A DNA stretch of 64,000 nt from a virus. Shown piece after piece: positions 1-63,266 of this stretch. The stretch covers positions 11,730-75,729 of IMG/VR virus record IMGVR_UViG_3300032236_001081; one strand, given 5' to 3'. The notes beneath the pieces are model-generated. The model had not been told where the DNA came from. It was given only the letters and a program-made list of their open reading frames with translations, and made no database searches. The translations under genes and the position numbers were made by a program. Position 1 is the first letter of the stretch, and every line of letters starts with the position of its first letter.

Positions 1-1
1 T

Positions 2-880
2 GGAGGAGAAGAGTTGGACCCGCCTCAATATGGAAAAGTATTATTATCAGTAAAGCCAAAGAATGGTTCTTTTTTATCTCAAGCAACTAAAGAAAGAATT
101 TTAAAACAACTTAAACAGTATAGTGTAGCCGGAGTTAAGCAAGAACTGATAGATTTGAAGTATCTTTATGTAGAGTTAAATACAAATGTTTACTATAACA
201 AATCAAAGGCTTCGGATGTCAATACATTAAAAACTAATATTCAAAATGCAATTACGAGCTATTCTAAATCTTCTGATTTGAATAGTTTTGGTGGAAGATT
301 TAAATATAGTAAATTTGGCTCTTTAGTTGATAATGTAAGTGATGCAATTACTTCAAACATTACTAAAGTAAAAATAAGAAGAAATATAACTCCAGCATAT
401 AATAAACTTGCTAATTATGAATTATGTTTCGGAAATCGCTTTCATCTTCAAAAAAATAATTTAAGTGATAACCGAGGATACAATATCAAGTCAACTGGAT
501 TTAATATTAATGGCGTAGCTTCAACAGTATATCTAAGCGATTCCCCAATAAATGGCACTACCGGAAATGTATTCTTTTTTACATTAGATACTGGAATTCC
601 GTTTATTGTGAGTAATAATGCGGGAATTGTTAATTATAAAACAGGAGAGATAAAATTAAATCCAGTAAATATTACTAGAAGCGTAGTTGGCTCTGAAATA
701 CAAGTTGAAGCAGTTCCTGAATCAAATGATGTCATTGCTTTAAGGGATATATATTTAGACCTTAATATTCAAAATACAGTCGTAACTATGATAGAAGATA
801 CTATATCTTCTGGTGAAAATCTTTCTGCTAGTTCTTATGCAGTAACTTCAAGCTATTCCAACGGTAATTATATTCGTTAA
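2..880 (+). CDS. gp6: Baseplate wedge subunit gp6, C-terminal part (5'-truncated by window)
   Basis: Frame is open from nt 2 (GGEELDPPQYGKVLLSVKP..., FGGRFKYSK), typical of the T4-like gp6 C-terminus; lies directly upstream of gp7/gp8. Confidence 0.9.
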   Translation, partial: GGEELDPPQYGKVLLSVKPKNGSFLSQATKERILKQLKQYSVAGVKQELIDLKYLYVELNTNVYYNKSKASDVNTLKTNIQNAITSYSKSSDLNSFGGRFKYSKFGSLVDNVSDAITSNITKVKIRRNITPAYNKLANYELCFGNRFHLQKNNLSDNRGYNIKSTGFNINGVASTVYLSDSPINGTTGNVFFFTLDTGIPFIVSNNAGIVNYKTGEIKLNPVNITRSVVGSEIQVEAVPESNDVIALRDIYLDLNIQNTVVTMIEDTISSGENLSASSYAVTSSYSNGNYIR

Positions 881-882
881 AA

Positions 883-3800
883 ATGTCAGAAATAAAAAGA
901 ATAAAAATTCAGAATCTTATAGAGTCTCAAATCCCAGAATTTTTAAACGAGGAATCTCCACTTTTTCAAGAATTTCTAAAACAGTATTATACTTCTCAGG
1001 AATATACTACAGGATTAAATGACCTTGCAATCAATTTAAATCAATATAAGGGAATTGAGAACTTCAACGCAGAGACATTTTATAATTCTTGTAAGTTAAG
1101 TTCAAATGTATTGTCTTTTGATAATGAAATTTCGGTCAATAGCACTTTTGGATTTCCTAGTTCATACGGACTCTTAAAGATAGATAATGAGATTATTACC
1201 TATACTGGAATTACTACAAACTCTTTTACTGGATGCGTTCGTGGATTTAGTGGTATTGATGCCAATTCAGACCATTCGGAATTAATATTCAAATCAACTT
1301 CGGTAGAAGAACATTCTTCTGGAAGTAAAGTATTTAATTTAAATTTACTATTTTTTAGTGAAATATTTAAAAAGTTTAAGTCTCAATATCTTTTAGGATT
1401 TGAAGACCGTAAGTTTTATTCACAGATAAGTTTACAAAATATATTAACCAGAGCAAAAGACTTCTACGCTTCAAAGGGAACTGATACTTCATATAAGTTG
1501 CTATTTAAAGTCTTATATGGTAAAGACATAAGTATCGTTGACCCTAAAAATTTTACAATAAAACCATCTAACAATCCAGCTCTAGTTACTAAAAATATTG
1601 TTGTTGAAAAAATTAGTGGAGTTGGTGACCCTATAGATTTAATTGGAAAAACTATATCTCAAGCTATTCCTGGAGGAAGGACTGCTAGTGCTGCAATTTA
1701 TAATGTAGAGTATAGAAAGACTGATAACAGAGACTTATATGAAATCTCATTAGATTCAGAAAGTTTTATCTATAATTTTATTCCTACAAAAAAAACTAAT
1801 GTAGTAGAGACTATTAATATTAACTCTACTTCTATTTCCGTAGATTCAACTGTTGATTTTCCAAGCTCTGGTACTGTTTATATAAAACCGGCCAATAGCT
1901 TTACTTCTATTCCAATTAATTACCAAAATAAAAGTGCAAATCAATTCCTAAATGTAAGTGGAATTAATATTGAAGTTCCTTTCAATAGTGATATTATTGA
2001 AGATAATTTTGCATACTCTACTTTAGATAATGGCAATATTCTTAAGTTTAGAATATTTAATATTATAGAGTCTGTTGATTATTCAAAGACTTCTAATTTG
2101 AGAGTCGGGGATAAAATTTATCTATCTTCTTTTGGTGAAAATTATCAGGATTTCCCTGAGTATAATAGTTGGATGTATAATCTTCCAACTTACCATAATA
2201 TATCAAATATTAATGGTAACATAATTACCACGGTAGATAATATTTTACTTTATAAGGGAGATACTATTGTATTATCAGACACTACAATTCCAAATAATCC
2301 TACATTAATAGTTCCAGTAGATAGTATTATTTCTAAAAATAAATTTACTGTCTTAGGAGTATTACCTAATATTAGGTATAATCGGATTCAAAAAGTTATC
2401 AATAAGAGTAGATTAAATCCTAATATTTCCTCCAGAATTCAAAATACTTATATTGACACCTCAACTGATAATATAGTTACATTATCTTCAGGACTTCCTG
2501 ATTACAAAGATATTGTATTAGATAATAGAGAAGTAGGATTAACAATCACAGGAGTTGGAACATATATATTCTCCACTACTGATACACACTACTTCTATAC
2601 TGGAGAGAAGATTCATTTTACTCCAAGTTTAGGGTTCAGTGGACTTTCTACTGGAACTTATTTTGTAAATAGATACTCTAACACTTCAATATCATTAGCT
2701 TACAGTTATAGTAATCTTTATGCTAATAATTACATAGGAATTCAAACTAGTATATCAAATATTGGAACCATCGTAAAATTAGGGTATGAGGGAAAAAATG
2801 ACTCAATCCTAGACCATCAAAAATTATTAAAAATATTCAATATCAATAATAAAAATAATGAGGATACAACTTTAAGTAAAAATACGATTGGCAAGTCTCT
2901 AGGATTACTTATTAATGGAGTTGAATTATATTCATCTGCTATATTTAATGAAGGGTATTATTATGGTCAGATTAATGATATTGCAATTTCAAATTCAGGG
3001 AAGGATTATGATGTCATAAATGCCCCCACAATTCAAATTAGTGACGAAGGGGGGGAAGGTGCTGGAGCACAAGTTTATGCCAATATGAGAGGCACAGTGA
3101 GGGCAATCCGGGTGATTTCTCCAGGAATTGGCTATCAAGTTAAACCTAAGATTTCTATAATTGGTGGAAATGGATATGGTGCAGTGCTTGAAAGTAATTT
3201 AGTACAGTCACCTATTATATCTTACTTCTTAGGTTCTGCAATATCATTAAATGTGATTACTTTTGCAGGCACTCATAAGTTTCAAGATACAGAACAAGTA
3301 ATTTATCAAAATAATTCAAATCCAGAATTAGTGGGATTAACTAACAACTCCACTTATTATGTTGGTGTTATAAATTCAACTCAAATTAAACTATACCGAA
3401 ATAGAGATGATTCTATCAATAAGACTAATGCAATTGTTATTGGAAATAATGACACTGGAATTTATTATTTAACGACTGTTGATATTAAAAATACTATAAC
3501 TGAAGTATATGTAAAAGATAGTGGAAAAAATTATTCAAGTAAAACTATTAAACTTTCATCTTCAGAATATATTGATGATACTACAGTTGGAATTAGCACT
3601 TTTGATAACTACATACTTGTTAAAAATCACAATTTAAGAGAGAAAGATATTGTTGTATATTCAACTACGAATACAGTAATTTCAGGATTATCTACAACTA
3701 ATCAGTATATTGTAAGTGTAATTGATACTAATAAGTTTAGATTAGCAGAAGCTGATTCTACAGATTTTTATTATAATTATTCAAACAATAGATTTGTAAA

Positions 3801-6800
3801 TCTGAATTCTATTGGTTCAGGAACACATACTTTTAAATATCCACCTATTCAAGTGGTGGTAGAAACTACCTCTGGGATATCTTCAACTACAATTTCTCCA
3901 GTATTTACCCCTATTGTACTAGGAGAATTTGAAAGCTTATTTATAGAAAATTATGGCACTAACTATGGTTCTTCTGATATTATAAACTTCAATAGAAGGC
4001 CAAATGTAAAAATTCAAACTCCATCTATAGACGCACTACTTAATCCAATTATACTTGAAGGAAAAATTGTTGGAGTTCAGATTTTATCTGGTGGAGCTGG
4101 ATATGGAAAAGATATTGATATTGTAATTGAGGGTTCTGGAAAATATGCGCTATTAATTCCTACCGTTGAAAATGGTAAAATTATAGATGTGACTGTAGTA
4201 AATTCTGGACTTGGGTATGTAAATAAAAAAACTAGCCTTCAAGTTGTAAAAAGAGGAAATTCTGCTAAATTTATAGCAAATCTAACAAAATGGACTTTAA
4301 ATCAATACAAAAAATATTCAAATAAAATAAATGAGCTTACAGGAGAAGGAATTCTTATACCAAGTAATAATGTTAAAAAAACTTTACAGTATATTAATTT
4401 TTATCCGCCAAAGAAATTAAGAGATGAAGTTGGAGATACTTCTGGAAATGCTTCTCCTATTTTAGGATGGGCTTATGATGGAAATCCGATATATGGACCC
4501 TATGTGAATTTACCTTCATCAACTTCTCCTTCAAAAGTTAGAAGTAGTTATCAATTATCTAATATAAATGTTAATACTATAAGTAGTATAAGGCCTGTCC
4601 AGTGGAATAACGGGGATTTCATAGAAGATTATAAGTATATTCCAAATTTTGGAGATTTAGATGAACATAATGGAATGTTCATCAAAACTAATGAATTTCC
4701 TAAAGGAATATATGCGTATTTTACAACATTAGATGGTTTAAATTCTCCAGCATATCCATATGCAATAGCTACGGAATTTAAAAATACGCCAATAATTAAA
4801 AATTTTAACGGATATGTTAATCAAGATTTAAATTTAGATTCTATTAATTTTATTAGAAATACTGGACCATATTATCTAAATTCCGAAAATTCCGGATATT
4901 TACCAATAAGTAAAATTGAGCCAAAATATAAGCAAGAATTTATAGTAAATAATATTATTAAGTCTGGAATAGATTCTATTGGTATAGTATCTCCAGGTGA
5001 TAATTTTATGGTTGGAGATAGGCTTCAATTTGAAAATATTCCAAATACTATTAGTCCAAGCTGCTCCGTATCAAATATTAATGGAGTTCCTTTAACTAAT
5101 ATAGCAGTAGGTATTTCTACTTTAAAAAATGTAACATTTAAAAATAAAAATAATATAATTACAGGTATTACGACAATACCTCATAATTTAGTATCAAATG
5201 ATGTTGTTGTGATATCTTCAATTTCTTCTAATCAATATTCATCTTTAGAAGGAAGTAAAACTATTTCAGTAAGTCAAAAAACAACCGGGATTACAGTAGG
5301 CATCTTATCATCAACAGATACTGGAGTATCTACTGCGATTTCCGTCAATGATGTTTCTGGATTTAATATTGATGATTATATTAAAATTGATTCTGAAGTA
5401 TTGAAAATTAGAGATATTAAAATCAATCAATCTCAACTACTTGTAGATAGAAGTAATGATGGAGGAATTCATACTGCTGGCGTATCTTTAGTTAATCTTC
5501 TTCCCACTAAATTTACATTTAATGAGCCTAAATTTAATGCCAATTTAAAAAGTAATTCTGTTGTATATTTTAATCCTTCAAATAGTATAGGGTTAGGAAC
5601 TACTGGAACTACTTATATTGATTATGGCAATACAACTTATTTTGCTCCAGCCCAATCAATCTATATTGAAAATCACAAATATTATACAGGTCAGCCCCTA
5701 ACATATAAGGTGGGAATTGGAGGAACTGGATTGGTCGTGTCAAATTCTCCAACTTCACCTCAATTTAAATTAATTGATGGTCAAATAGTATATGCAGTAA
5801 ATTATGGTGCTAACTTTGTAGGTCTATCTACATTAGGATTTACTACCAGTACTGGAATAGGTGTTAGTTATAATTCATTATACTTTAGAGATAATAGCAA
5901 TTCCCTAGGAAATTCTCATAACTTTACTACTCAATATGATTTAATCAGTGGAACAACTGAAAGATATACTATAACTGCTAATACAAAATCTCCACATTTA
6001 TTATCAACTAATGATATAATTGATTTTAAAGTGATAACCTCCGATGCAGTTGATGTTGAATTAAATTATAATTCAACTATTCGTAAAATAACTACTCCGC
6101 CTCTTACTTTTAATGCATCAACTGAAGTTAATGTTACAACATCTACAATTTATATTTCAGATGATTCGCTTCAAACTGGGGATAAAGTTGTATATACGAA
6201 TTCAACCAATCCTTCTATTGGTGGATTAGTTGATAATGAAAGATATTTTGTATTAAGAGAAAGCCCAAATGCAATCAAATTGACTCAATATTATGATGAC
6301 ATATCTAAAAATAATTATGTCAAGTTAACTAGCACTAGTACTGGCACCCATTCAATTGCAAAAGTAAATCCACTAATTTATTTAAATAAAGGAAATAAAT
6401 ACGAATTTATAGGAATTGGTACATATATTAAACTATACAAAGATTCAAATTACTTCTACGAATTGGAACCATATAGGTATACCTCATTTACCTTAGATAC
6501 CATTAATCAAGAGTACCCACAGGAGTTATATTATACTTTATCGCCTTTATCCGGGAGACCAGTATCTTTAGATACTGATGTAATATCTGGAGGTAGAATT
6601 GTACTACTTGAAAATTCATATGATGGTAGATATTCAGTAATTCCAACTTCTGATACTTCATTCAGATTGAACTTAAAAAATAAACCTCGTTATTTGGGAA
6701 CTATTAATTTTAATAAGGCAACATATTCTACAACTTCAAAAACTGCTAAAGGTCCCATAAAAACTATTAAAGTAAATCAAAAGGGGAAATTTTATAATAA

Positions 6801-9800
6801 AATACCTAAAATTACTTCAATACTCACAACCTCTGGAAGTGGTGAATTATTAACTACAGTTTCTAGTACGATAGGAAAAGTTGATACATTAGAAAGAGTT
6901 AAAGATGGATTTGATTATCCCACAGATGGCACACTATTGCCAAAATTATCTATACCTACTATTGCAATATTAAATAAAGTTTCTAATGTTAAATCCGTAG
7001 ATGTGCTTTATGGAGGAAAAAATTATAATACTCCACCAAACTTGAAAGCAATTGGAAATAATGTATTACAATTAACTACAGAACTTAAAGGAAATAGTGT
7101 ATCTAAGGTAAGTATTATAGTAAATGATAATTCTCTTGATACACCACTATCAATAGTGCCTGTAAATAATTCTAATGGATTTGATATTATTGGAATAACA
7201 ACTTCATCAACTAGAAATAGTATTGAACTAGACACTACATCTTATCCTTCATTATCTGGTGTGTTCCCATTTAGTGTGGGAGATGAAATTTTTATAGAAA
7301 ACTGCAGTATCACCTCAGAGGTTCAAAAGAATTATAATTCTAAAGATTATAATTATAGATTTTTTAAAGTAACCTCAGTAAATCAGAATACTTCAACTAT
7401 AGAATATGATATAACTGGATTATTTGGATTTGGTACTTACACTTTAGAAAAGGGCTATGGTACGGTAGTTAATCGTAAAGATATGGCTACTTTTAAGATG
7501 AATATAACTGATGATATTAATTATATTTCTGGTGAAAAACTAATTGGATTTAATACTACTGGAAATCAAACCTTTACTGGATATGTAATGGAAGATGGGT
7601 GGGATAGTAAAATAAAGCAGATAAGAATTAATAAGTCTGAAGGGGAATTGGATATTGGATACCGATTGAAAGGAGAATTATCAAATCTCAAGGGAGAAAT
7701 TACAAATGTAAATAATTTCAATCTAAAATCAAAATTAGGAGTATCTAGAGATAAAATAAATTATACTCAAGATGATATTGGAGATTTAAATAATTCATTA
7801 CAAAAAATATCGGATAATAATTATTATCAGAATTTTTCTTATGCTATAAGAGGTGAGGTTCCATATAGTGATTGGAAAGAACCTGTACATTCAGTAATTC
7901 ACCCTTCAGGATATAGAGAATTTTCAGATTTAGAAGTTATTAGTCAGGCAGGTAAACCTGTTGGAATGAAGACTACTACTAACAATGAAGTAACTTTAAT
8001 CGTAAAAATAGATAATGAAGTATCATTGCATACTCGTGATAATTTTGCAATTGCTTATGATGAAACCCAACTTAATCAGTCATATGCTGAAAGAATAAGT
8101 TTTGGTGCAATTGAGCCTTGGAATGTTGCTGGAGTTGGGTTAACTGCAATTAAAGGTATTGACTTATTGCCTTATATTTTAAATAATACAAATAAAGTAA
8201 TTGAAATTGATGATATTAGTGAGCAGTTTACTGGAACTAATGCTGAAATAAACATACAATCTAATATACCAGTAACTTTTAATCCACAATATCCATATAA
8301 CTTAGGAGTATCTACTGCGGGACTATCAGTTGGAGATATTGTTGGTTATTCTACTTATCATACATATCCAGAAAATACTGGTATTACTTCAATCGGAATT
8401 GAAAGTGTATTTACATTATATCCACATAAGTCATATTCAGGAATAGTGACTGAGAGTTTAAGTTTTTCTAGAAGATTAAATGGAAATATAGTATCTGGAA
8501 TTAGTTCATTTAAATTAACTAATAAAACTACTCCTCTTTTCAGTAGGACTTTTAATTCTAATGATAGTTCTATTGTAAATTTAACCACATACAGTTTTAA
8601 TATTAATAATCATAACTTACAAACTGGTCAAAAAATATTCTATTCTTATCAGGGTGGAACTCCTATTAGAATTGCTACTACTAATTTAGTTTTAGGTGGA
8701 ATATCTACAAATATACTACCTTCAACTTTATATGTCAATAAAATTAATGATAATAGTTTCCAAGTGGCTGGGCTATCTACATCTATAAGATTAGAATTGA
8801 CTAGTTTGGGAATAGGAACTCATAAATTTACTGTGGACAATCCAAATGTTAATGCTTTAATTTCTATTGATAATATCATACAGAAACCAATTTACAATAG
8901 ACCAATTACTTTAGGGTTAGTAAATAATGCTAATGTGGGAATAACTTCAATTTATGTGAATTCTGGAATAAGTTCTATTTCAACTATTGATATTCTTAAA
9001 ATTGATGAGGAACTTCTAAAAATAATTAATGTAGGTATAGGTTCAACTAATGTAATAAATGTTAAACGAGGGTTCCTAGGAACTCAGGAGAAGAACCATA
9101 CATCTGGGTCTAGTATTAATATCATTAGAGGTGACTATAATATTATTGAAGATACTATATTCTTTACATCTCCTCCACAAGGTCCTACTGGATTAGAAGG
9201 TCTAAAAGTATCGTCTTCTTTCTCGGGTAGAGTATTCAGTAGAAAATTTGACCCTACATATCCAGATGATAAAAATATTATTTTTGATGATATATCGGAC
9301 CAGTTTACAGGACTATCTACATTCATCTTAAAACAAAATCAAAATAGTATAACGCAAATTTATAATAATAGGAATTATGGAACTGATGCAAGTAATAACC
9401 CACTGATATTCATAAACAATATATTACAAGTTCCTGAAACTGATTTTACAATTCAAAATAATAGTGTAAATGAAATTAGTTATCTAACGGGAATTCCAAA
9501 TTCTGGTAAGATTTTAAATGTTGGTATCAATACAGCCTTCGGCTATGTGCCTCTTATAGGTGCTGCTGCAACCGTTTCGGTGTCTGGATTTGGCACTATC
9601 TCCAATGTGTATCTTACAGGGGCAGGGACTGGCTATAGAACTCCTCCATACATTAGCCTAGGCTCTACAGTTGGGCAAGGAGCTTCTATTATTGCTAATG
9701 TAGGTACATCCGGAACTATTACTGGGTTTACTATCGTAAATCCAGGAAGTGGTTATACTTCAACTGCAGTTCCTATTGTAAATATTGATACTCCTCTACC

Positions 9801-11361: not shown

Positions 11362-11367
11362 TAAATA
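11361..11367 (+). promoter_or_regulatory. T4-type late promoter (ATAAATA)
   Basis: ATAAATA 20 nt before the gp8 ATG. Confidence 0.7.
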
Positions 11368-11387
11368 TATGAAAGTATTAAGTTAAA

Positions 11388-12938: not shown

Positions 12939-12944
12939 TAAAAA

Positions 12945-47589: not shown

Positions 47590-47594
47590 TACGA

Positions 47595-47691: not shown

Positions 47692-47713
47692 ACTATGAAA
47701 TTATGAGATAACT

Positions 47714-50529: not shown

Positions 50530-50535
50530 ATTTAT

Positions 50536-50658
50536 ATGAACTTACCTATTAATGAAAAAGACTTAAAATTTATTTTAGAAAAAGTTAAGCACAATACAGA
50601 ACTTTATAATAAATTATGGTCTTTTTGGTTTAAAATGCAAACAACAAAGGATAACTAA
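50536..50658 (+). CDS. 40-aa hypothetical protein (not in ORF track)
   Basis: MNLPINEKDLKFILEKVKHNTELYNKLWSFWFKMQTTKDN; fills the gp43-uvsX gap. Confidence 0.6.
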   Translation: MNLPINEKDLKFILEKVKHNTELYNKLWSFWFKMQTTKDN

Positions 50659-50660
50659 CT

Positions 50661-52213: not shown

Positions 52214-52224
52214 TTTATTAAGTA

Positions 52225-53598: not shown

Positions 53599-53599
53599 T

Positions 53600-54010
53600 A
53601 TGACAAAACGTATTGATTTCATTAAATACCAAGAATTTGTAGATGCAGTAACCTCTGATGCATCTAAGGATTTTCTTGCTCTTTCTGACCGTATGGTTGA
53701 GTTAGATGAAAAAGGAGCAAATATTGAACGACTTCTAACTTCAGGAGTTGGTATCAACGCAGAAGGTGGAGAATTTCTTGAAATTGTTAAAAAAATGATT
53801 TTCCAAGGAAAGCCCTGGGATAAAGAAACCCGAACTCATCTTATTAAAGAATTGGGAGATACAATGTGGTATGTGGCACAAGCCTGCATTGCTCTTGAAG
53901 TTTCATTTGATGAAGTCATTCAAACTAATATTGACAAGTTGTATAAAAGATATCCTGGAGGAAATTTTGATGCATATTACTCCGAGAATAGAGAAGACGG
54001 AGATATTTGA
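53600..54010 (+). CDS. mazG: MazG-like nucleotide pyrophosphohydrolase
   Basis: GINAEGGEFLEIVKKMIFQGKP; ELGDTMWY; KLYKRYP. Confidence 0.93.
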   Translation: MTKRIDFIKYQEFVDAVTSDASKDFLALSDRMVELDEKGANIERLLTSGVGINAEGGEFLEIVKKMIFQGKPWDKETRTHLIKELGDTMWYVAQACIALEVSFDEVIQTNIDKLYKRYPGGNFDAYYSENREDGDI

Positions 54011-54030
54011 TATAATATAATACACATTTA

Positions 54031-54067
54031 GTCCCAATAATTTCTAAATATAAGAAATCATTGGGAT
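54031..54067 (+). promoter_or_regulatory. RBS-sequestering hairpin containing a late promoter
   Basis: GTCCCAAT-A-ATTTCT / loop / AGAAAT-C-ATTGGGAT; CTAAATA at 54044-54050; GGGA 7 nt before ATG 54074. Confidence 0.65.
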
Positions 54068-54073
54068 TTTAAT

Positions 54074-55096
54074 ATGCCTGTGGATTCTAAAATAGATATT
54101 ACAAAAATCCAATATGTAGTAAATTCTATTGCATCCAGTAATAGTATTGTAGTTAGAAAAAATTATACAGTACAAGTTATCCCTAAAAATTTAGCAGAGG
54201 GGAGGCCGTTATATGAAAAGATATATTCAGAGCTTCTTAGATTATATCCTAATATAAAATTAAAAAAAGAAATTGATGGAGACATAGGTAAAATTAGAGT
54301 AACTGAGAATGGATATGGGTATGTAAAAATACAATTAGAAAAGTCAACCAATAAGATTAGCAGTGTATTAAAACCAGGTGAGGCATATGAATTATATTTC
54401 CATTCTGTGATATTAGATCAACTTAGTAGAATCAAGGAGATAAAAAAAGAATTGGATGGAGTCCCTCCTAACATATTTGATATGTATAATAATGTAACCT
54501 TAAATCTATACGGAGGTGGTAAACAAATATCTATAGGACCTATATTATCTGCAGATAAAGTGGGACAAACTGGTAAAAAACCTGATATCGCAATAAAAAC
54601 TAAACCTGGTAAAACTATAACGATATCGTTAAAACAAGGAAATTTTTCATTTTGGAGTAGTGCAGATACATATGAAAATATTCCTATCCAAATTTTGAAT
54701 AAGACTTTAAAAGCAGGGAAAGTTGCATTAAAAACGCCTCCTGGACAACCTTCCACTTTTGTTGGAAATGTTGGAGGAATAAGAGTTCCCGCCAACATAT
54801 CTGAAGTTAAAAAATACTGCTTTGGCGGGTCTACTGGGGTTGATTATATCATAATCAATGCTAAATTAACTGGAGTAAGTAAAAATAATATTATTAGTAT
54901 GAATGGAATTAATATATTTAAAAATAATAACACTAAAGATATATTGAGAATGCTTCCCGATGTTTACTTAGTAATAAAGTCAGACCCAAGAAGAAATGCG
55001 AAGTCTATGCTACCATATAAAGGATTTACTGTTAATTTTGTGAATAAAGCTCACGCATTTGACCCTAGAAATAAATATGTAGATGGTGTTAGATAA
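54074..55096 (+). CDS. Putative PD-(D/E)xK-superfamily endonuclease
   Basis: Lys-rich protein; GEAYE helix, then KPDIAI...ISLKQ (PD...SxK variant). Confidence 0.5.
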   Translation: MPVDSKIDITKIQYVVNSIASSNSIVVRKNYTVQVIPKNLAEGRPLYEKIYSELLRLYPNIKLKKEIDGDIGKIRVTENGYGYVKIQLEKSTNKISSVLKPGEAYELYFHSVILDQLSRIKEIKKELDGVPPNIFDMYNNVTLNLYGGGKQISIGPILSADKVGQTGKKPDIAIKTKPGKTITISLKQGNFSFWSSADTYENIPIQILNKTLKAGKVALKTPPGQPSTFVGNVGGIRVPANISEVKKYCFGGSTGVDYIIINAKLTGVSKNNIISMNGINIFKNNNTKDILRMLPDVYLVIKSDPRRNAKSMLPYKGFTVNFVNKAHAFDPRNKYVDGVR

Positions 55097-55101
55097 AATT
55101 C

Positions 55102-55108
55102 ATAAATA
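55102..55108 (+). promoter_or_regulatory. Late promoter ATAAATA
   Basis: Upstream of the cytidyltransferase-like gene. Confidence 0.7.
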
Positions 55109-55125
55109 CTTAAAAACTCAATAAT

Positions 55126-56325
55126 ATGAAGTCGTTTCGCCAATTTATATCCGAAGCATTAGAAACAATTGCATCATCCCAAGCAAAACAAATGGGACTG
55201 CGAGGAGATGGGCACGGAGATTGGTATGATAATCAAGGGAAATTAGTAGCAAAAACTGTAGGGGGTAAACTTCAGGTATTTAAAGGAAGAGATAGTAAAG
55301 GTGCTGAAGATACAGCTACTAAAAAAGATACTGAAGCTCAACCCCAAGCAGCACCTGCAACTCAACAACCTCCGGACCAACAGCAACCACAGACACAAGA
55401 GCAAGGTAAAGGTATAGTAGTAGTTCTTGGTAAATTCAACCCTCCAGGAAAGGCACACGAACAACTTTTAAAGTTTGGATTCAATCAAGGAAAAACTAGT
55501 GGGGCAGAATATCGTATTTACCCAAGTCGTATTGAAGATAAAGAAACTAATCCTCTCAATCCGACACTCAAGATAAAGTATATGAAGGCAATGTACCCCG
55601 AGTATGCAGATTATATTATAGACAATAGTGACATATCCACTTTATTTGATGTTCTTACAAGTTTATCAAATGATGGATTTACTGATGTAAAAATAATTGT
55701 AGGCTCAGATAGAGTTGGGGAGTTTCAAAGTTTAGCTCATAGAGGAGAAGGAGAAACCTATCAATTTAATACAATTGAAGTTATTCCTGCGGGAGTGAAG
55801 GACCCAGATAGTGATGTTGGAGGTGCTGGGTCTTCCGCACAATTAAGAGCAGCAGTAGCAGAAGGGAACTTTGAATCATTCTCTGCAAATCTTCCTACCC
55901 GTATGAAGAGAGCGGATAAGGAACAACTTTTTAATTCAGTTGCAGATGCTATGCAACTTGGAGAGAGATATGAATTATGGAGAATTGCCCCTGAACTTGA
56001 TATGGAAGGGTTGAGGATGAACTATAAAATAAATAACTTATATCCTATTGGTAGTATTATAGAAAATTTAAACACAGGACTTCAGGGAAGAGTTCTTCGT
56101 CGTGGGACCAACTATCTTATTTGTGTAACAAATGAAGGAGTGATGTTTAAATCTTGGTTGCAAAATATAAAAGAAGCGGTTTATGAAGTCGGAACCTCTA
56201 AATACCTTAAAAAATTACAAAGTATAACTCCAGGTCAACCTGTAGTTTCTTATACTGGAATTGAAATTAAAGAAACTATGCCTAAGAAAAAACTAAATAT
56301 GAATAGTAAAGGTTCTACAAAATAA
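55126..56325 (+). CDS. Cytidyltransferase-like (HxGH nucleotidyltransferase family) protein
   Basis: VVVLGKFNPPGKAH (family pattern FGRFNPP..GH); NPL...KIKYM; IIVGSDRV; SSAQLRAA; C-terminal RRGTNYLICV domain. Confidence 0.8.
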   Translation: MKSFRQFISEALETIASSQAKQMGLRGDGHGDWYDNQGKLVAKTVGGKLQVFKGRDSKGAEDTATKKDTEAQPQAAPATQQPPDQQQPQTQEQGKGIVVVLGKFNPPGKAHEQLLKFGFNQGKTSGAEYRIYPSRIEDKETNPLNPTLKIKYMKAMYPEYADYIIDNSDISTLFDVLTSLSNDGFTDVKIIVGSDRVGEFQSLAHRGEGETYQFNTIEVIPAGVKDPDSDVGGAGSSAQLRAAVAEGNFESFSANLPTRMKRADKEQLFNSVADAMQLGERYELWRIAPELDMEGLRMNYKINNLYPIGSIIENLNTGLQGRVLRRGTNYLICVTNEGVMFKSWLQNIKEAVYEVGTSKYLKKLQSITPGQPVVSYTGIEIKETMPKKKLNMNSKGSTK

Positions 56326-56327
56326 AG

Positions 56328-57710
56328 ATGGCAAACTGGAGAGAAGAATTACTTTTTGAAAAAGGTCCTTTTGATAAGCCACCTTCAGTGTTAAAAAGAG
56401 AGCGAGATGCTTCTGCAAAAAAAGATGCAAGAGAAGCAAAAGCAGAAGAAGCTGCTGAAAGGTCTGCAGATTATCGTAAATATCAAAAAGATACATTAGA
56501 ATATAAAAAAGGAAGATTGAAATGGCAACAGGAAAGGTCTCTCAAAAAAGATAAAGAAAGAAGAGAAAACGAACAGAAGGCTAGAATAACTGGCCCGCTT
56601 AAAGATATCAAAACTCAAACAATATCGGGCAAGGACCCCGACTCTACTGCTGGCGCAAAGCTAGTAGGAAACGCTGCGTCTCTTGTAGGTGGAGTTGCTA
56701 AAGCTGGTGCTGCTGCAATTGTACACAATATAAAAAAAAGAAAAGAAGCAAAAAGAAACGCTCAAATTGAAGCAGGAACTAAAAAAGCACAAGAAAAAGC
56801 TGCAGAAATGGAGACTTCTCGGAAACAGCCAAGATTACCACCAGCGGGTAGAACTTTGGGCCAAAGAGCACGAGCAAATAAAAGCATTAGACAAACAGAA
56901 ATAGCAAATAGAATGCCAAAGAAACAATATGATTTTAAGCAATCTGAATACGATAAGTCTACTAATGAAGAATACTCTTGTTGGAGAGAGGAGTTTCTTT
57001 GCGAATTAGGAGATATAAGAAGAAAGATGAAAAAAGATAAAGATGATAAAATTGTAAATGTAATGACAGGAACAAATAAGATTACATTATTCCCAACTAT
57101 CATTGAAGAAGTTGATAATGAAGGCGGAATGGCTCGTAATGAGCTTTCTACGATGGAAAGAGCAGTCAAATCACTTCGCAAAAAAATAAAATCAAATAAT
57201 CAACAACTGCCTGCGTGGGTTCAATCTAAAATCACAAAAGCAGCAGACCATATTGATACTGTTGCGGATTATATGATGGGTGAAACTGAAACAGTTAAAG
57301 AAGCATATGATGATGAGAATGAAACTTTCCGTCAGCATTCTCGTGAGAGATTTACTGCTGGTGCTGCTGATGATGATAGAGCACAAAGAACTTCTAGAAT
57401 TCTTCAAAGAATGAAAGAAATGAATAAAGATGCTAAACCAAAGAAGAAAAAAAAAATTAAAATAGCAGAAGAAGGACCTGTTCTATCTGTAGGTAGAGGT
57501 GAAAAACTTTCAGTTGAAAGGGGTGGTGGATTGACTGCAAAAGGAAGAGCAAAATACAATCGTGCCACTGGCTCACACCTTCAAGCACCTGTAACTGGTA
57601 AAGTAAAACCAGGAAGTAAAGCAGCACAACGCCGTAAGAATTTTTGCTCTCGTAGTAGAAGTTGGCACGGAGAAAGAGGATTAGCTGCAAGACGAAGATG
57701 GAAGTGCTAA
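56328..57710 (+). CDS. Modular, highly charged late protein (candidate capsid-internal polyprotein)
   Basis: CTAAATA at 56293; repeated WREE(L/F)L.E; module EGGMARNEL...LPAWVQSKITKA; module GGLTAKGRAKYNRATGSHLQAPVTG...RRKNFCSRS...RRRWKC. Confidence 0.65.
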   Translation: MANWREELLFEKGPFDKPPSVLKRERDASAKKDAREAKAEEAAERSADYRKYQKDTLEYKKGRLKWQQERSLKKDKERRENEQKARITGPLKDIKTQTISGKDPDSTAGAKLVGNAASLVGGVAKAGAAAIVHNIKKRKEAKRNAQIEAGTKKAQEKAAEMETSRKQPRLPPAGRTLGQRARANKSIRQTEIANRMPKKQYDFKQSEYDKSTNEEYSCWREEFLCELGDIRRKMKKDKDDKIVNVMTGTNKITLFPTIIEEVDNEGGMARNELSTMERAVKSLRKKIKSNNQQLPAWVQSKITKAADHIDTVADYMMGETETVKEAYDDENETFRQHSRERFTAGAADDDRAQRTSRILQRMKEMNKDAKPKKKKKIKIAEEGPVLSVGRGEKLSVERGGGLTAKGRAKYNRATGSHLQAPVTGKVKPGSKAAQRRKNFCSRSRSWHGERGLAARRRWKC

Positions 57711-57712
57711 TT

Positions 57713-57720
57713 TATAAATA
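57713..57720 (+). promoter_or_regulatory. T4-type late promoter TATAAATA
   Basis: Exact consensus. Confidence 0.8.
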
Positions 57721-57743
57721 CTTATAGTTTATACAAGGTTATT

Positions 57744-57923
57744 ATGTCAGCATTAATCGCATGGGCATTTGCTAATCAAGCACTTATTGCAACTGTATTG
57801 TTTGCAATTTCAGAAGCACTTGGAGCAAATCCAAAAATCAAAGCAAACGGTCTTCTTTCACTACTTCTTTTACAAGTGCAAGGACAACTAAAATCAAAGG
57901 GTGCTAAAGATTTAACACCCTGA
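57744..57923 (+). CDS. 59-aa hydrophobic membrane protein (holin-like candidate; not in ORF track)
   Basis: MSALIAWAFANQALIATVLFAISEALGANPKIKANGLLSLLLLQVQGQLKSKGAKDLTP; own late promoter and terminator. Confidence 0.7.
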   Translation: MSALIAWAFANQALIATVLFAISEALGANPKIKANGLLSLLLLQVQGQLKSKGAKDLTP

Positions 57924-57945
57924 GGTTTTAACTTTAAATTCTAAA

Positions 57946-57975
57946 GGGGACCAAAACTGCGGTCTCCATTTTTTT
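57946..57975 (+). terminator. Rho-independent terminator
   Basis: GGGGACC-N8-GGTCTCC-A-T7. Confidence 0.8.
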
Positions 57976-57982
57976 ATAAATA
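57975..57982 (+). promoter_or_regulatory. T4-type late promoter TATAAATA
   Basis: Exact consensus, overlapping the terminator T-tract. Confidence 0.8.
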
Positions 57983-58010
57983 TTCTTATAAAACATACGG
58001 GGAAAATAAA

Positions 58011-58874
58011 ATGGCTCTTTGGGGAAATTCAGATAGTAGTTACTCACCAGGGACAGTTACTGTAAGGTATAGTGATGGTAGAATCACCGGAGCTGGAACT
58101 TCATTTACTGCAGTTGGAATTACTACTGGAGCAGTAATTACTATTGGAGCCGGTGGAACCTTTGGAGAAGGTGTAATTAAGTCAGTCACTAATAATACTG
58201 AACTTTATATTGCAACTTCTAGATACCTTTCTGGTGCTACTATTGCAGGTGTTTCATACGCCATCTCGCAAAAACCAAAATATACTATGTTTGACTCCAA
58301 CTATGCTGGAATCACCACCACCTCATCTGGACAATCTACCAAAGTTTATGGCGTAGATGAATTTGAAGCACAGACACAAGCCGGAACTTCTGGAACTAAA
58401 TATAAATTAGCTCATTCAGGATGGGTGGGCATTCATACTTATATGGATGCTGATGGTAATTTACGAGTTAAGAGTGAAGTTCTTGTTGCGATGTCTGGTA
58501 TTACTTCAAATACCGCAGCAACTTATTCTACCCCAGGTGATGCTGCTGATGACACTGTGTTCCCTGATAGATTGATTACAATTAGTTCACAGCCTACCTC
58601 AGTTGGAATTGCTACAACTGGCACAGGAACCTTCAGAGTAACTGCAGCAGCAGTTCCTACATCGGCACTTACTTATCAGTGGCAAGTTTCTACTAATGGT
58701 GGAACTTCTTACAGTAATGCATCTGGTGGAATATATTCTGGAGGAACAACTGCTACATTAACTCTTACCTCCCCTCCACTTAGTGCAAATAACAACCTAT
58801 ATAAAGTTGTTATCGCATCTTCTGGAGGAGCAACCGCAACTTCATCATCTGCAAAACTTACTGTAACCGCTTGA
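58011..58874 (+). CDS. Virion protein with C-terminal Ig-like domain
   Basis: MALWG start; HSGWVG...RVKSEVLVAMS; Ig-like ITISSQPT...LTYQWQ...TATLTL...YKVVI. Confidence 0.75.
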   Translation: MALWGNSDSSYSPGTVTVRYSDGRITGAGTSFTAVGITTGAVITIGAGGTFGEGVIKSVTNNTELYIATSRYLSGATIAGVSYAISQKPKYTMFDSNYAGITTTSSGQSTKVYGVDEFEAQTQAGTSGTKYKLAHSGWVGIHTYMDADGNLRVKSEVLVAMSGITSNTAATYSTPGDAADDTVFPDRLITISSQPTSVGIATTGTGTFRVTAAAVPTSALTYQWQVSTNGGTSYSNASGGIYSGGTTATLTLTSPPLSANNNLYKVVIASSGGATATSSSAKLTVTA

Positions 58875-58881
58875 TATTAAT

Positions 58882-59253
58882 ATGAGATTTGATGAATTGA
58901 ATGATGAAAACTATATTATATTTGCCATAAAGCATTATGAAAATCCACAAGCAGTCACTGAAGATGACTTCTATGATGATTTAAAAAGATTTAAGTGGAT
59001 TAAGCGTTTGCTTAAAAAATATAAATTAAATGGCGAATTGAATACTCATTTACTCATCAATCATTTTTTAATCTTATATAATATATTTGGTGATGCAACA
59101 ACCCCTTTGTTATTTTATATGATAGATTGTGAATATTGGTCTATTATAAAAACAATTATTGGATATCTTGGAAGGTTTCCCGAATATCCAAAATCTGAAC
59201 TTCACGATATTCAAATAGATTTAAACTGCTTTAATTATTTAAATAAAATCTAA
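58882..59253 (+). CDS. Conserved T4-like hypothetical protein
   Basis: FDELNDENYIIFAIKHYENP...FYDDLKRFKWIKRLL...LLINHFLILYNIF. Confidence 0.8.
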   Translation: MRFDELNDENYIIFAIKHYENPQAVTEDDFYDDLKRFKWIKRLLKKYKLNGELNTHLLINHFLILYNIFGDATTPLLFYMIDCEYWSIIKTIIGYLGRFPEYPKSELHDIQIDLNCFNYLNKI

Positions 59254-59501
59254 TGAACGACCGTACCTTCAATCATATTAGAAACTTAATTAAATCTTAT
59301 ATAATTGAAGATGGAGCAGGTATGGGAGTTGCGCCAACAAATAATATTTCGTCTGGGGCAATATCAGGAGCATCTGGAAAGGAAGGAGATATGCCCCCTG
59401 TTTATCTTGATTTTAGAAAAAACAAATACAAAAAATTACCAGACCCTTATAAAGCTTTATTCCGGAGAGGAAAAAATGTTCAACCAAAACGAAAAAGTTG
59501 A
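59253..59501 (+). CDS. Small hypothetical protein
   Basis: PTNNISSGAISG motif; TAATG coupling with the upstream gene. Confidence 0.6.
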   Translation: MNDRTFNHIRNLIKSYIIEDGAGMGVAPTNNISSGAISGASGKEGDMPPVYLDFRKNKYKKLPDPYKALFRRGKNVQPKRKS

Positions 59502-59913
59502 CACTAGAGTTGCGATTCTTGAAGAAAAATTTTCGGTGTATGAACAGATGCTTAATAAGATTGAAGATGCGATTAGAGCAATAAGTGAAACAAGTCAAGG
59601 CATTTCAAAAATGCTTGCAATTCACGAAGAAAGAATTGAAGTCTCAAATAAGGCTGATAATTCTATTTTAGTTAAGTTGAGAGAAGTTGAAGAAAAAAAT
59701 AATACAGAACACGGCAAAGTTATAAAAAAAATAGAAGGACTTGAAACTAAGATAGAAGACCTATCTAAAGCTAGATGGATGGCTGTAGGAGTTATAGGAT
59801 TTTTAGCATTAGTAGCAACCGCAGTAAGTACTCTTGCTTCGGGTATGTTAATTCCCCACTCTCCAATGCCTCCAGATACCAATCCCCCAGCACATGTTAA
59901 AGACGCAAAATAA
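59476..59913 (+). CDS. Coiled-coil protein with C-terminal transmembrane helix
   Basis: Start reassigned to ATG 59476 (GGAGAGG SD); KMLAIHEERI; RWMAVGVIGFLALVATAV TM segment. Confidence 0.7.
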   Translation: MFNQNEKVDTRVAILEEKFSVYEQMLNKIEDAIRAISETSQGISKMLAIHEERIEVSNKADNSILVKLREVEEKNNTEHGKVIKKIEGLETKIEDLSKARWMAVGVIGFLALVATAVSTLASGMLIPHSPMPPDTNPPAHVKDAK

Positions 59914-59967
59914 TTGACTTAACAGCGACCTTACAGTAGGGTAATAGTCGATGAATCTTACCTTATA

Positions 59968-60972
59968 ATGTCTTTTATTGATACTAAGTATATTGGATTA
60001 ATTTCATCTAGACTGGATAAGTTTTCCCAAAAGAATTCTAAAAATTACGAATTTCGTTGCTGGTATTGTGGAGACAGTAAGAAATCTCAATCAAAGAAAC
60101 GAGGAAACTTATATCAAATCGGAACTTCTTATAATTATAAATGTTTCAATTGTGGGAAGTCAGTAAGTTTTTCAACCTTCCTAAAAGATTTAGACCCATC
60201 TTTACACGACCAGTATATTCTAGAGAAGTATAAAGAAACTGGTCCACGACTCAAAAGAATAGAAGTAAAGCCTAAACTTCAAGTTCCAAAACTTAGAACT
60301 ATTAAAAAATATTTTGACCTACCTTTGGTTTCACAACTAAATAAAGAACACTTTGCAAGACAGTATTTAGAAGACCGAAAAATACCTAAACACTATTTGG
60401 ATGAATTATATTTTTGTGAAAAGTTCAAACACTGGACCAACACACAAAAACCAACATTCAAATTTACTAATCACGATGAGCCTAGAATCATCATCCCTTT
60501 AGTTTCAGATGGTAATATCTTCGGGTTCCAAGGAAGAAGTCTTTCAAAAAATGCAAACATTAAATATATTACAATAATATTGGACGATACCCTACCTAAG
60601 GTATATGGAGTAGATACTATAAATTGGGATAATGCCGTCTATATCGTTGAAGGGCCATTTGATAAGATGTTTCTTTCAAATTCTATTGCTATGGTTGGAG
60701 CAGATATAAACCTAACTTCATTTTCAAGTGATGCTAATTTCATTTATGTTTATGATAATGAAAGAAGAAACGAACATATTGTTAGTAGAATAGAAAAGGT
60801 TATAGATTTAGGACATTCTGTTGTAATTTGGCCCAATGACTTGAAAGAAAAGGACATTAATGATTTAATTTTATCTGGTATGAGTTCTTTTGATATTCAA
60901 AAGATTATTAAAGATAATACATTTAAAGGACTACAAGCAAAAGTAAAACTTACCGAATGGAAACGAGTATGA
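59968..60972 (+). CDS. gp61: DNA primase gp61
   Basis: Zinc finger CWYCGDS...CFNC; RIIIP; GFQGR; TOPRIM VEGPFD; YDNE; KDIND. Confidence 0.96.
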   Translation: MSFIDTKYIGLISSRLDKFSQKNSKNYEFRCWYCGDSKKSQSKKRGNLYQIGTSYNYKCFNCGKSVSFSTFLKDLDPSLHDQYILEKYKETGPRLKRIEVKPKLQVPKLRTIKKYFDLPLVSQLNKEHFARQYLEDRKIPKHYLDELYFCEKFKHWTNTQKPTFKFTNHDEPRIIIPLVSDGNIFGFQGRSLSKNANIKYITIILDDTLPKVYGVDTINWDNAVYIVEGPFDKMFLSNSIAMVGADINLTSFSSDANFIYVYDNERRNEHIVSRIEKVIDLGHSVVIWPNDLKEKDINDLILSGMSSFDIQKIIKDNTFKGLQAKVKLTEWKRV

Positions 60973-63266
60973 GTAACGGGACTAACGTAATCAAAAGAAA
61001 TGGCAGTCAGGAGCCTCTGGATTTAAATAAGCTTCACTTAATGGTTGAGGAGGCTTGTAAAGACCTTTCAGGGGTTTCTGCATCTCAGGTTGAGATGACT
61101 TCTGGAATTCAATTTTATAATGGAATTTCAACAGGAGAAGTTCAAGAAATTTTGATTAAATCTGCCTCGGATTTGATTGATTTGGAAAATCCAAATTATC
61201 AATTTGTAGCAGCAAGACTTCTTTTATTTTCTATTCGTAAATCATTGTATGGGAAGATTAAAGACCATCCTACATTCTTTGAGCATATTACTAAATGTGT
61301 AGATGCAAGTGTTTATGATAAGGAAATCTTATCATATTATACGGAAGAAGAACTAAATCGTCTTGGTGATTATATCAAACATAAACGGGATTATCTCTTC
61401 ACCTATGCCGGTCTTCGTCAAGTTGTTGATAAATATCTTGTTCAAGATAGAAGCACCGGACAAGTATATGAAACTCCACAGTTCATGTATATGATGATTG
61501 CTGCAACAAAGTTCTCACGATACCCAAAAGAAACTAGACTTTCATATGTGAAGAGGTACTATGACGCAACATCAAAACACAAAATCAACATCCCAACACC
61601 AATTATGGGAGGAGTTAGGACTCCTTTACGACAATATGCAAGTTGTGTTCTTGTTGATTCTGATGATACCCTCGATAGCATCGGTCACTCTGATTTGGCT
61701 ATTTACAAGTATGTTGCTCAAAGGGCTGGCATCGGTATCAATGCGGGCAGAATCCGTGGTATCAATTCTAAAATCAGAGGTGGAGAAGTACAACATACCG
61801 GGGTTATTCCCTTCCTCAAAAAATTTGAATCAACTGTACGAAGTTGCACTCAAAACGGTATCAGAGGTGGTTCAGCAACTGTTCACTTTCCAATCTGGCA
61901 CCAAGAAATAGAAGACATTATTGTTCTGAAAAATAATAAGGGAACTGAAGATAATCGTGTTCGTAAGTTAGACTATTCTATTCAAATCAGCAAAATCTTC
62001 TATGAACGATTTATCCGCAACGAAGAAATCACACTCTTCTCTCCCCACGATGTTCCTGGTCTTTATGATGCTTTTGGCACTGATGGATTTGACAACCTTT
62101 ATGTGGGTTATGAACGAAATGAATCTATTCCAAGAAAAACTATCGGTGCTCAAGAACTCTTTTTGGACCTTCTAAAAGAAAGAGCAGAAACTGGTCGTAT
62201 TTATATTATGAATATTGACCACTGCAATTCTCATAGTTCTTTCGTTGATAAGGTTTCAATGTCAAACCTTTGTCAGGAAATCACACTTCCAACTAAACCC
62301 ATTCAGCATATTGATGACCCAGACGGAGAAATTGCTCTTTGTATTCTTTCCGCAATCAATATCGGTAAAGTTAAAGACGATTCAGAATTTGAAGAACTTT
62401 GTGATTTGGCTGTTCGTGGATTGGAAGAATTGATTGATTATCAACAATATCCAGTGGTTGCTGCCGAAAAATCAACAAAGGCTCGTAGGTCTCTTGGTAT
62501 TGGATTTATTGGTCTGGCACATTACCTTGCTAAACTTGGTTTCAATTATGATTCTCAAGAAGCATGGGATGCAGTTCATGGACTTTCAGAATCTTTCCAA
62601 TATTTCTTACTCAAATCTTCTAATCAGATTGCCAAAGAAAAAGGTGCTTGTGAATATTTCAATCGCACAAAGTATTCTCAAGGAATTCTTCCAATTGATA
62701 CATACAAAAAGGATGTTGATGAACTGTTAAATCCAACTCTTCAACACGATTGGGAAACACTTAGAGAAGATATAAAACTGTATGGTCTTAGACACTCCAC
62801 ATTATCAGCACAGATGCCCTCCGAGAGCAGTTCAGTCGTCTCTAACGCAACTAATGGAATTGAACCACCTAGAGGTTATTTGTCCGTCAAACAGTCTAAA
62901 AAAGGTCCTCTCAAGCAAATTGTTCCACAGTTTCAAAGTCTTAAAAACAATTATACGCTTCTTTGGGATATGCCTAGCAATCGTGGTTATATTAATATTG
63001 TTGCAGTTATGCAAAAGTTCTTTGATCAAGCGATTTCTGGAAACTGGTCTTATAATCCGGAGAATTATCCCGATAATGAAGTTCCTGTTAGCGTAATGGC
63101 ACAAGATATGCTCACTTGCTTTAAGTATGGGCACAAAACAGCATATTATCAAAACACTTATGATGGTAAGTCCGATGAAATCAGAGAAGAGAAATCTAAT
63201 CTTGACAATTTGATTCAGGACATACTAAGCTCGGATGAAGCAAATTGTGATAGTTGCAGTATTTGA
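60969..63266 (+). CDS. nrdA: Class Ia ribonucleotide reductase alpha subunit
   Basis: ATP-cone VIKRNG; PTPIM; ASCVL; SNLCQEI; MPSESSS; C-terminal CDSC. Confidence 0.98.
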   Translation: MSNGTNVIKRNGSQEPLDLNKLHLMVEEACKDLSGVSASQVEMTSGIQFYNGISTGEVQEILIKSASDLIDLENPNYQFVAARLLLFSIRKSLYGKIKDHPTFFEHITKCVDASVYDKEILSYYTEEELNRLGDYIKHKRDYLFTYAGLRQVVDKYLVQDRSTGQVYETPQFMYMMIAATKFSRYPKETRLSYVKRYYDATSKHKINIPTPIMGGVRTPLRQYASCVLVDSDDTLDSIGHSDLAIYKYVAQRAGIGINAGRIRGINSKIRGGEVQHTGVIPFLKKFESTVRSCTQNGIRGGSATVHFPIWHQEIEDIIVLKNNKGTEDNRVRKLDYSIQISKIFYERFIRNEEITLFSPHDVPGLYDAFGTDGFDNLYVGYERNESIPRKTIGAQELFLDLLKERAETGRIYIMNIDHCNSHSSFVDKVSMSNLCQEITLPTKPIQHIDDPDGEIALCILSAINIGKVKDDSEFEELCDLAVRGLEELIDYQQYPVVAAEKSTKARRSLGIGFIGLAHYLAKLGFNYDSQEAWDAVHGLSESFQYFLLKSSNQIAKEKGACEYFNRTKYSQGILPIDTYKKDVDELLNPTLQHDWETLREDIKLYGLRHSTLSAQMPSESSSVVSNATNGIEPPRGYLSVKQSKKGPLKQIVPQFQSLKNNYTLLWDMPSNRGYINIVAVMQKFFDQAISGNWSYNPENYPDNEVPVSVMAQDMLTCFKYGHKTAYYQNTYDGKSDEIREEKSNLDNLIQDILSSDEANCDSCSI

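Follow-up and report, generated by a model that had tools for sequence, protein, structure and literature searches.

What could strip several short palindromes from almost an entire stretch of phage DNA? The question is raised by the 64,000 nucleotides analysed here (the window), which are bases 11730-75729 of a 75,729-bp linear IMG/VR contig, IMGVR_UViG_3300032236_001081, hereafter G000. A first-pass annotation, made from the letters alone, had claimed that three palindromic tetramers, GATC, CATG and TCGA, were purged through synonymous codon choice, and had offered two causes: escape from host restriction-modification (RM) systems cutting at four-base sites, or avoidance of sites used by a nuclease of the phage itself. 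The scarcity proves to be real and wider than proposed, and the first of these causes, escape from host 4-cutter RM, is the best-supported reading. We consider it quite probable that the loss reflects classical avoidance of the sites cut by type II restriction enzymes of the hosts, and that this avoidance has been evolving fast.

Five depleted palindromes and the codons that avoid them

Whichever strand or codon phase is considered, depletion of GATC, CATG, TCGA, ACGT and GTAC extends over the whole window (positions 1..64000). Against a maximal-order Markov expectation, the window holds 14 GATC (199 expected; observed/expected ratio [O/E], 0.07), 5 CATG (128 expected; O/E, 0.04), 5 TCGA (77 expected; O/E, 0.06), 15 ACGT (69 expected) and 50 GTAC (167 expected, a 3.3-fold depletion). 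The by-eye tallies of the first-pass annotation, about 12 GATC, 5 CATG and 5 TCGA, were thus close to the exact ones, as was its estimate of roughly 180 expected occurrences for each, the zero-order expectation being 190 each in the 64-kb window. The three words that it named are indeed depleted, but the set is five: ACGT was missed, and at least three hexamers are absent clade-wide. Similarly, it had listed GTAC, CCGG, GGCC, AGCT and CTAG as present, which does not hold for GTAC; AGCT, CTAG, CCGG and GGCC, together with TGCA, are just mildly low (O/E, 0.7 to 0.9). When all 136 reverse-complement tetramer classes are ranked, the lowest five are exactly these five palindromes (Markov O/E, 0.04 to 0.30), and the lowest-ranked non-palindromic class stands at 0.74. 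Over the 75.7 kb of G000, the five 4-cutter sites number 133, compared with about 790 expected.

The depletion also persists when protein sequence and codon usage are held constant. We permuted synonymous codons within each of the 77 open reading frames (ORFs) of the 75.7-kb contig, preserving both, and repeated the shuffle 300 times. The codon-shuffled O/E is far below 1 for every word (TCGA, 0.07; GATC, 0.09; ACGT, 0.16; CATG, 0.20; GTAC, 0.33), with z-scores of -10 to -19, and none of the 300 shuffles approached the observed counts. A codon-shuffled ratio near 1 was what the first-pass annotation had said would undo its claim.

Site removal occurs mostly via silent codon changes. Genome-wide, Asp before a C is written GAC 104 times and GAT 10 times, with GAT making up 87% of Asp codons elsewhere; His before a G is CAC 47 times and CAT 8 times. 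Before TCN, only 1 of 71 Gly codons is GGA, though GGA accounts for 49% of Gly codons. The same discrimination is seen around CGA, which is preceded by an NNT codon in 3 of 58 cases, compared with 96 of 142 for CGT; an NNA codon precedes CGT in 7 of 142. Every codon example listed in the first-pass annotation is in frame where it was placed, and its rule holds genome-wide. Its remark that GATC is the core of the cyanobacterial HIP1 element has no bearing here, since the HIP1 word, GCGATCGC, occurs 0 times. Among pentamers, the most depleted in G000 are GAWTC (121 observed versus 192 expected) and CAWTG (105 versus 175), both with an O/E of about 0.6, and GASTC stands at 0.71; the deficit of GAWTC and GASTC is possibly a weak avoidance of GANTC-type sites.

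A sibling contig, the wider clade and the sites that remain

The closest comparison is with G007, a 73.4-kb contig that is collinear with G000 and 90.2% identical to it over 66 kb. Avoidance of CATG, GATC and GTAC is common to the two; avoidance of TCGA and ACGT is private to the G000 lineage. G007 is itself strongly depleted in CATG (5 observed/165 expected), GATC (37/250) and GTAC (74/200) and is not depleted in TCGA (94/131) or ACGT (62/96). Site by site, in gap-free aligned columns, 2 TCGA are shared, 2 are found only in G000 and 85 only in G007. For ACGT the corresponding numbers are 15, 4 and 35, and for GATC 6, 3 and 28, compared with 230, 109 and 91 for the control word TGCA.

The first-pass annotation had allowed that TCGA depletion might be nothing more than general CpG scarcity. 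However, the Markov expectation already conditions on TCG, CGA and CG, and in the aligned columns the siblings have nearly equal CpG totals (866 in G000 and 879 in G007) despite holding 5 versus 88 TCGA and 19 versus 50 ACGT. General CpG scarcity is therefore no explanation. Indeed, TCGG, CCGA, TCGT and ACGC are commoner in G000 than in G007. The lost TCGA sites are now mostly TTGA, TCAA or TAGA, all single-base changes, and the substitution outcomes at lost sites include TTGA 19 times, TCAA 16 times and ATGT 15 times. At lost TCGA sites, the ratio of synonymous to non-synonymous codon changes is 71:16 (about 82% synonymous), compared with 3352:2548 for all G000/G007 substitutions and near 1:1 for control words. 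As TCGA is near-normal in the more distant relatives G006 and L213, whose gp43 is about 77% identical, the simplest reading of these alignments is that TCGA and ACGT were lost in the G000 lineage after its split from G007. AGCT and AGCC/GGCT are lower in G007 than in G000.

Sites are not removed evenly along G000. A run free of CATG covers positions 1..57759 of the window and starts 1,525 bp upstream of it, for 59,285 bp in all, where about 105 CATG are expected; the next one lies at 57760. The most thoroughly purged stretch is 1..20222 on the + strand, which comprises the 3' end of a 625-amino acid (aa) ORF followed by virion/fibre-like ORFs of 3492, 516 and 2425 aa, with the giant virion-module ORFs of 3492 and 2425 aa at 883-11361 and 12945-20222 (+). 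In this giant-ORF stretch (21.2 kb), observed/expected counts are 1/59 for GATC, 0/36 for CATG, 0/18 for TCGA, 0/13 for ACGT and 25/67 for GTAC.

The leftover sites lie preferentially in DNA that the sibling lacks. Segments without a G007 homologue make up 12.8% of the contig and consist of the left-hand variable region, 1 kb carrying a 340-aa ORF and the last 2.3 kb. They nevertheless contain 26 of the 50 remaining GATC, CATG and TCGA sites (P = 3e-11). In these segments the counts are 11/44 for GATC, 7/29 for CATG and 8/21 for TCGA (O/E, 0.25 to 0.38), compared with 9/198, 11/132 and 4/80 (O/E, 0.05 to 0.08) in the backbone shared with G007. Avoidance is relaxed in the final 2.3 kb, 61659..64000, where nrdA ends and a further ORF follows; this segment lacks any nucleotide homologue in G007 and carries 5 GATC, 2 CATG and 2 TCGA. 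Such clustering is the pattern expected if imported DNA brings sites with it that are later cleaned up.

The replication module is the exception for a single word. This module (48037..54010, +), which encodes the gp43 DNA polymerase, UvsX, a cupin/2-oxoglutarate (2OG)-like protein, the gp41 helicase and MazG, is not depleted in ACGT, with 11 sites versus 11.7 expected; the other 58 kb of the window has 4. The remaining words are purged there as elsewhere (GATC 1/19, CATG 0/13, TCGA 0/7, GTAC 1/15), and 9 of the 11 ACGT sites are also present in G007. We considered a recent import of the module from a G007-like phage and rejected it: its identity to G007, 0.91 to 0.92, is no higher than that of its neighbours, and TCGA is fully purged from it. 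An extended or degenerate recognition motif was likewise set aside, as the flanks of retained and purged sites show no clear difference.

Avoidance of short palindromes is common among the relatives of G000. In a set of 56 related viral contigs, each 14 kb or longer, strong avoidance of one or more 4-bp palindromes is seen in 41, in varied combinations: AGCT and CATG in 26 contigs each, GATC in 18, TCGA in 11, GTAC in 6, CCGG in 4, TGCA in 3, CTAG in 2 and ACGT in 1, namely G000. The maximum of five avoided words is reached only by G000 and by the pair G001/G002. G001, whose gp43 is 64% identical to that of G000, is depleted in GATC (5/288), CCGG (8/68), TCGA (18/146) and CATG (32/246), with ACGT normal. 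Longer words are affected across the clade. In 345 kb pooled from five members (G000, G001, G003, G004 and G007), GAGCTC, GTGCAC and ACCGGT are each absent (24-33, 19-30 and 10-14 expected, respectively), and TGCGCA and GCTAGC occur once each; GTGCAC is absent from G000 alone versus 9.6 expected. Cultured cyanomyovirus segments are much milder: GTAC is at 16/89 in DSL-LC02 and AGCT at 18/55 in P-TIM68, with nothing strong in S-CRM01. In G006 (284 kb), which is the nearest complete relative and encodes a D12-class and an N6_N4 methyltransferase in a region of its genome without counterpart in G000, depletion of GATC and CATG is weak. G006 (loci L293-L307) does avoid the degenerate word RGCY, with O/E values of 0.34 for GGCC, 0.38 for AGCC/GGCT and 0.40 for AGCT, a tendency that is weaker in G007 (L289-L292). 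RGCY is the specificity known from the chlorovirus enzyme CviJI.

Host restriction as the probable cause, its alternatives and a nuclease-like protein

All five avoided tetramers are palindromes and classical type IIP sites, and we infer from the sequence pattern that selection comes from the restriction enzymes of the hosts. Each site removed would make an incoming unmethylated genome likelier to escape cutting, and because of this gain, site-destroying mutations would sweep whenever their cost is low, most of them being synonymous third-position changes. The avoided words would then have layered ages. The oldest layer would be the clade-wide absence of GAGCTC, GTGCAC and ACCGGT, followed by CATG, GATC and GTAC, whose avoidance is shared with G007, and the youngest would be TCGA and ACGT, purged only in the G000 lineage after the split; recently recombined-in DNA would still have its sites and be in the course of being cleaned up. 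That avoidance differs between close relatives fits what strain-variable RM repertoires would predict.

Restriction-site avoidance itself is textbook biology and not new, and G000 is among the most extreme multi-site cases. Palindrome avoidance and its quantitative logic are established, as set out in section 63 of a review (PMC12707154, which there cites PMC6286503 and PMC5746541). As in the virulent phages of earlier work (Sharp 1986; Rocha et al. 2001; Rusinov et al. 2018, PMC6286503; review PMC12707154), type II palindromes of 4 to 6 bp fall below Markov expectation with the proteins unchanged. Unlike those earlier cases, G000 combines five 4-cutter sites, 3- to 25-fold depleted, with hexamers, and has a sibling showing that two of the sites were purged within about 10% nucleotide divergence. 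The G000/G007 pair would thus catch the process in action and let the speed at which RM pressure reshapes a phage genome be gauged in nature. There are precedents for a large phage genome losing nearly every copy of a site cut by a 4- or 6-cutter of its host, one of them in cyanophages: Staphylococcus phage K is reported to have no GATC in about 127 kb, and cyanophages of Anabaena and Nostoc counter-select the sites of the host enzymes AvaI, AvaII and AvaIII. In those phages, one to three sites are matched to host enzymes, whereas the five of G000 are unmatched.

Several considerations weigh against host restriction. None of the five sites can be paired with a cognate restriction enzyme of a known host. 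The 60% of the genome that is missing could hold methyltransferases or nucleases that alter this view. The 6-kb replication module has ACGT at its normal density and yet is fully purged of TCGA, and uniform selection with point mutation does not account for this. The exact agent acting on GATC is uncertain, because most cyanobacteria methylate this word by an orphan Dam-like enzyme. Finally, five simultaneous 4-cutter systems are a lot for one host, and the set may represent the summed repertoire of a host population. Helicobacter pylori, a species with many 4-cutter RM systems (PMC3936762, PMC2588503), can have those for GATC, CATG, TCGA, ACGT and GTAC side by side, with variation among strains; this is an unrelated host and proves only that such a repertoire exists.

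Only one gene of G000 is a candidate for a phage nuclease. The 340-aa ORF at 54074..55096 (+) is predicted to have a small N-terminal nucleotidyltransferase/RsfS-like domain and a nuclease-like C-terminal domain of the PD-(D/E)xK, MspI/HinP1I/HhaI-like type. The structural models are confident (predicted local distance difference test [pLDDT], 88.9 at full length and 85.9 in the C-terminal domain). The whole-protein model matches HhaI (Z, 6.6), MspI (6.5) and HinP1I (6.4) over 144-161 residues in the C-terminal domain (residues about 100-325), and in a search with that domain only, these three enzymes were the sole chains of 48,161 with Z of at least 5. The Z values, 5.2 to 6.6, lie in a range where a common arrangement may suffice. 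E106, K169, D171 and S185-L-K187 are invariant in the family, in alignments of 23 and of 14 sequences, and fit the catalytic motif D-Xn-(N/Q/S)-x-K. In a protein-language search of the Atlas, the nearest clusters are all viral, and the nearest named ones carry R-HINP1I, Endonuc-MspI and RE_HaeIII, with scores of 0.89 to 0.90. The best structural counterparts of the protein are MspI, HinP1I and HhaI (PDB 1sa3, 1ynm and 6uke), which it matches along almost all of the C-terminal domain, having D...S-x-K where they have D...(N/Q)-x-K. It is unlike these monomeric type IIP enzymes in its additional N-terminal nucleotidyltransferase/RsfS-like domain, its lack of an adjacent methylase, its lack of family membership and its Z of only 5 to 6.6.

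Sequence searches place the protein in no established family. It has no match in PHROGs, NCBIfam, PADLOC or Pfam (E <= 0.01, and so in neither PF09208 nor PF11463), a profile search against PDB sequences returned nothing, and Foldseek against the PDB matched nucleotidyltransferases on the N-terminal domain only. It has 49 homologues, none of them named, of which P0002-P0005 are 88-96% identical, and 50,697 cultured phage records yielded a single weak match. Its gene lies between those for MazG and a cytidyltransferase, with no methyltransferase adjacent. G007 lacks it, and its mazG and cytidyltransferase genes lie almost side by side. As it occupies the same position in G001, G003 and G004, whose avoided sets differ, the gene for the 340-aa protein appears to be ancestral and to have been lost in G007. 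The proteins encoded in this slot in P-TIM68 and DSL-LC02 have no significant similarity to it, that of DSL-LC02 showing a motif-level resemblance at 0.9% probability. In P-TIM68, a cultured Prochlorococcus phage, the slot holds an annotated DNA modification methylase (L310:22324-23100). It seems that DNA-modification or nuclease genes are gained and lost in this slot.

Could the phage be avoiding its own enzyme? In that case the 340-aa protein would be an orphan type IIP-like endonuclease, akin to MspI and HinP1I (N^CGN), that breaks down the DNA of the host, and the phage, having no methylase, would survive by purging TCGA and/or ACGT. MspI cuts CCGG and HinP1I cuts GCGC; the NCGN palindromes that remain are TCGA and ACGT, so that the two purged words would complete the series. 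The fold matches, the invariant catalytic-type residues and the Atlas clusters point the same way, as does the presence of the gene in G000, where both words are purged, and its absence from G007, which keeps them. Moreover, no DNA methyltransferase of Pfam PF02086, PF01555 or PF00145 was found across the 75.7 kb of G000, so that the first-pass statement that no Dam methylase is visible in the window extends to the whole contig, about 40% of the genome by CheckV estimate. Chloroviruses provide a model for such an enzyme: their RM systems, CviAI (GATC), CviAII (CATG), CviBIII (TCGA) and CviQI (GTAC), degrade host DNA and recognise four of the five words. However, chloroviruses methylate their own DNA and keep the sites, whereas G000 drops them and has no methylase in the available 40% of its genome. 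The fold scores are low, with no sequence-family membership, and the same-position gene in G001, G003 and G004 goes with different avoided sets. Homologues 70-74% identical occur in contigs that keep the sites (L082, with TCGA at 27/32 and ACGT at 22/24; L087, at 25/43 and 37/40), and TCGA is avoided without the gene in L250 (3/30) and L232 (7/32). Furthermore, 12 TCGA and 21 ACGT remain in G000, ACGT at full density right beside the gene, and an unrestrained enzyme would cut them. CATG, GATC and GTAC are left unexplained, being equally purged in G007, which has no such gene. We therefore regard self-avoidance, as the first-pass annotation had floated it, as mostly unsupported and very unlikely. 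Were it true, the phage would tell its own DNA from foreign DNA by leaving out sites and not by modifying them. Across 51 rows of contigs or loci covering the slot, some of them overlapping, an association of the nuclease-like gene with TCGA avoidance was sought and rejected as weak, confounded by kinship and beset by counter-examples in both directions.

Selection could also act through methylation-dependent restriction, in which orphan adenine or cytosine methylases of one host mark the progeny DNA and DpnI-like or type IV enzymes of the next host cut it, so that removing a site removes the mark. This would leave the same sequence signature as classical avoidance; all five words have a methylatable A and C, and orphan enzymes that methylate GATC are widespread among cyanobacteria (PMC4390886). 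By the same token, nothing in the sequence distinguishes it from classical RM avoidance. To our knowledge, methyl-dependent enzymes specific for CATG, TCGA, ACGT or GTAC are not well documented, and we hold this mechanism to be unlikely. A non-selective cause, whether a general scarcity of CpG, codon usage or dinucleotide bias, biased mutation or repair, or an artefact of assembly, might be sought in the overall under-representation of CpG (O/E, 0.50) and in the fact that TCGA and ACGT were mostly lost through CpG transitions. However, the Markov and codon-shuffle nulls already absorb biases of composition, dinucleotides and codons. The sibling contrast at equal CpG, with other NCGN words increased, and the confinement of the effect to palindromes among the 136 tetramer classes argue against such a cause, and there is no CpG in GATC, CATG or GTAC. 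The region is spanned by relatives that three other studies sequenced, so the depletion is not the artefact of one assembly. We consider a non-selective origin practically excluded.

Host, lineage and gene order

If host restriction did shape G000, its avoided palindromes could serve as barcodes which, combined with host methylomes, could link uncultured phages to host strains and map the RM repertoires of freshwater cyanobacteria. The first-pass annotation had expected the set to fingerprint the host, and this was not realised. The avoided set was not matched to any methylome, a search of 185,579 genomes with psbA of G001 gave uninformative matches of 76-81% identity, spread over numerous filamentous cyanobacteria unrelated to one another, and in no 20-kb flank of these psbA matches was more than one of the five words depleted. 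No CATG, TCGA, GTAC or ACGT motif is listed in the Lake Biwa metaepigenome paper, and our literature searches on cyanophage restriction-site avoidance found nothing specific. Moreover, since the set changes between 90%-identical siblings, it would mark the RM repertoire of a host strain or population rather than a species.

On gene order and sequence similarity, we take it that G000 is part of an uncultured freshwater T4-like cyanomyovirus of a divergent lineage with Kyanoviridae-type order. The window is 32.5% GC, and nearly all ORFs of the contig are on the + strand. From the left, small early-type genes are followed by the giant virion ORFs and then by a baseplate/tail/head module with gp23; the right part carries hsp20, the gp43 DNA polymerase, UvsX, the cupin/2OG-like protein, the gp41 helicase, MazG, the 340-aa ORF, the cytidyltransferase, primase and NrdA. 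The order of the core genes matches that of the Kyanoviridae phages DSL-LC02 and P-TIM68, which have the T4-like cyanomyovirus arrangement. The gp43 protein is at most 58-60% identical to those of cultured phages, and its top matches are all from cyanomyoviruses. Contigs from lake, freshwater and river metagenomes in the three other studies span all 20 kb compared, at 85-99% identity, and because the relatives come from such waters, the lineage is a freshwater one.

The photosynthesis gene psbA, a pointer to a cyanobacterial host, is present in the relatives G001, G002 and G005. In G001 and G002 it is in two pieces about 870 bp apart (in G001, L121:12721-14491, which is G001:C1:32721-34491, - strand). 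The reading frame of the split gene stops right after ...FNFMLV, and the arrangement resembles an intron or an inserted element, such as is known in psbA from some cyanophages.

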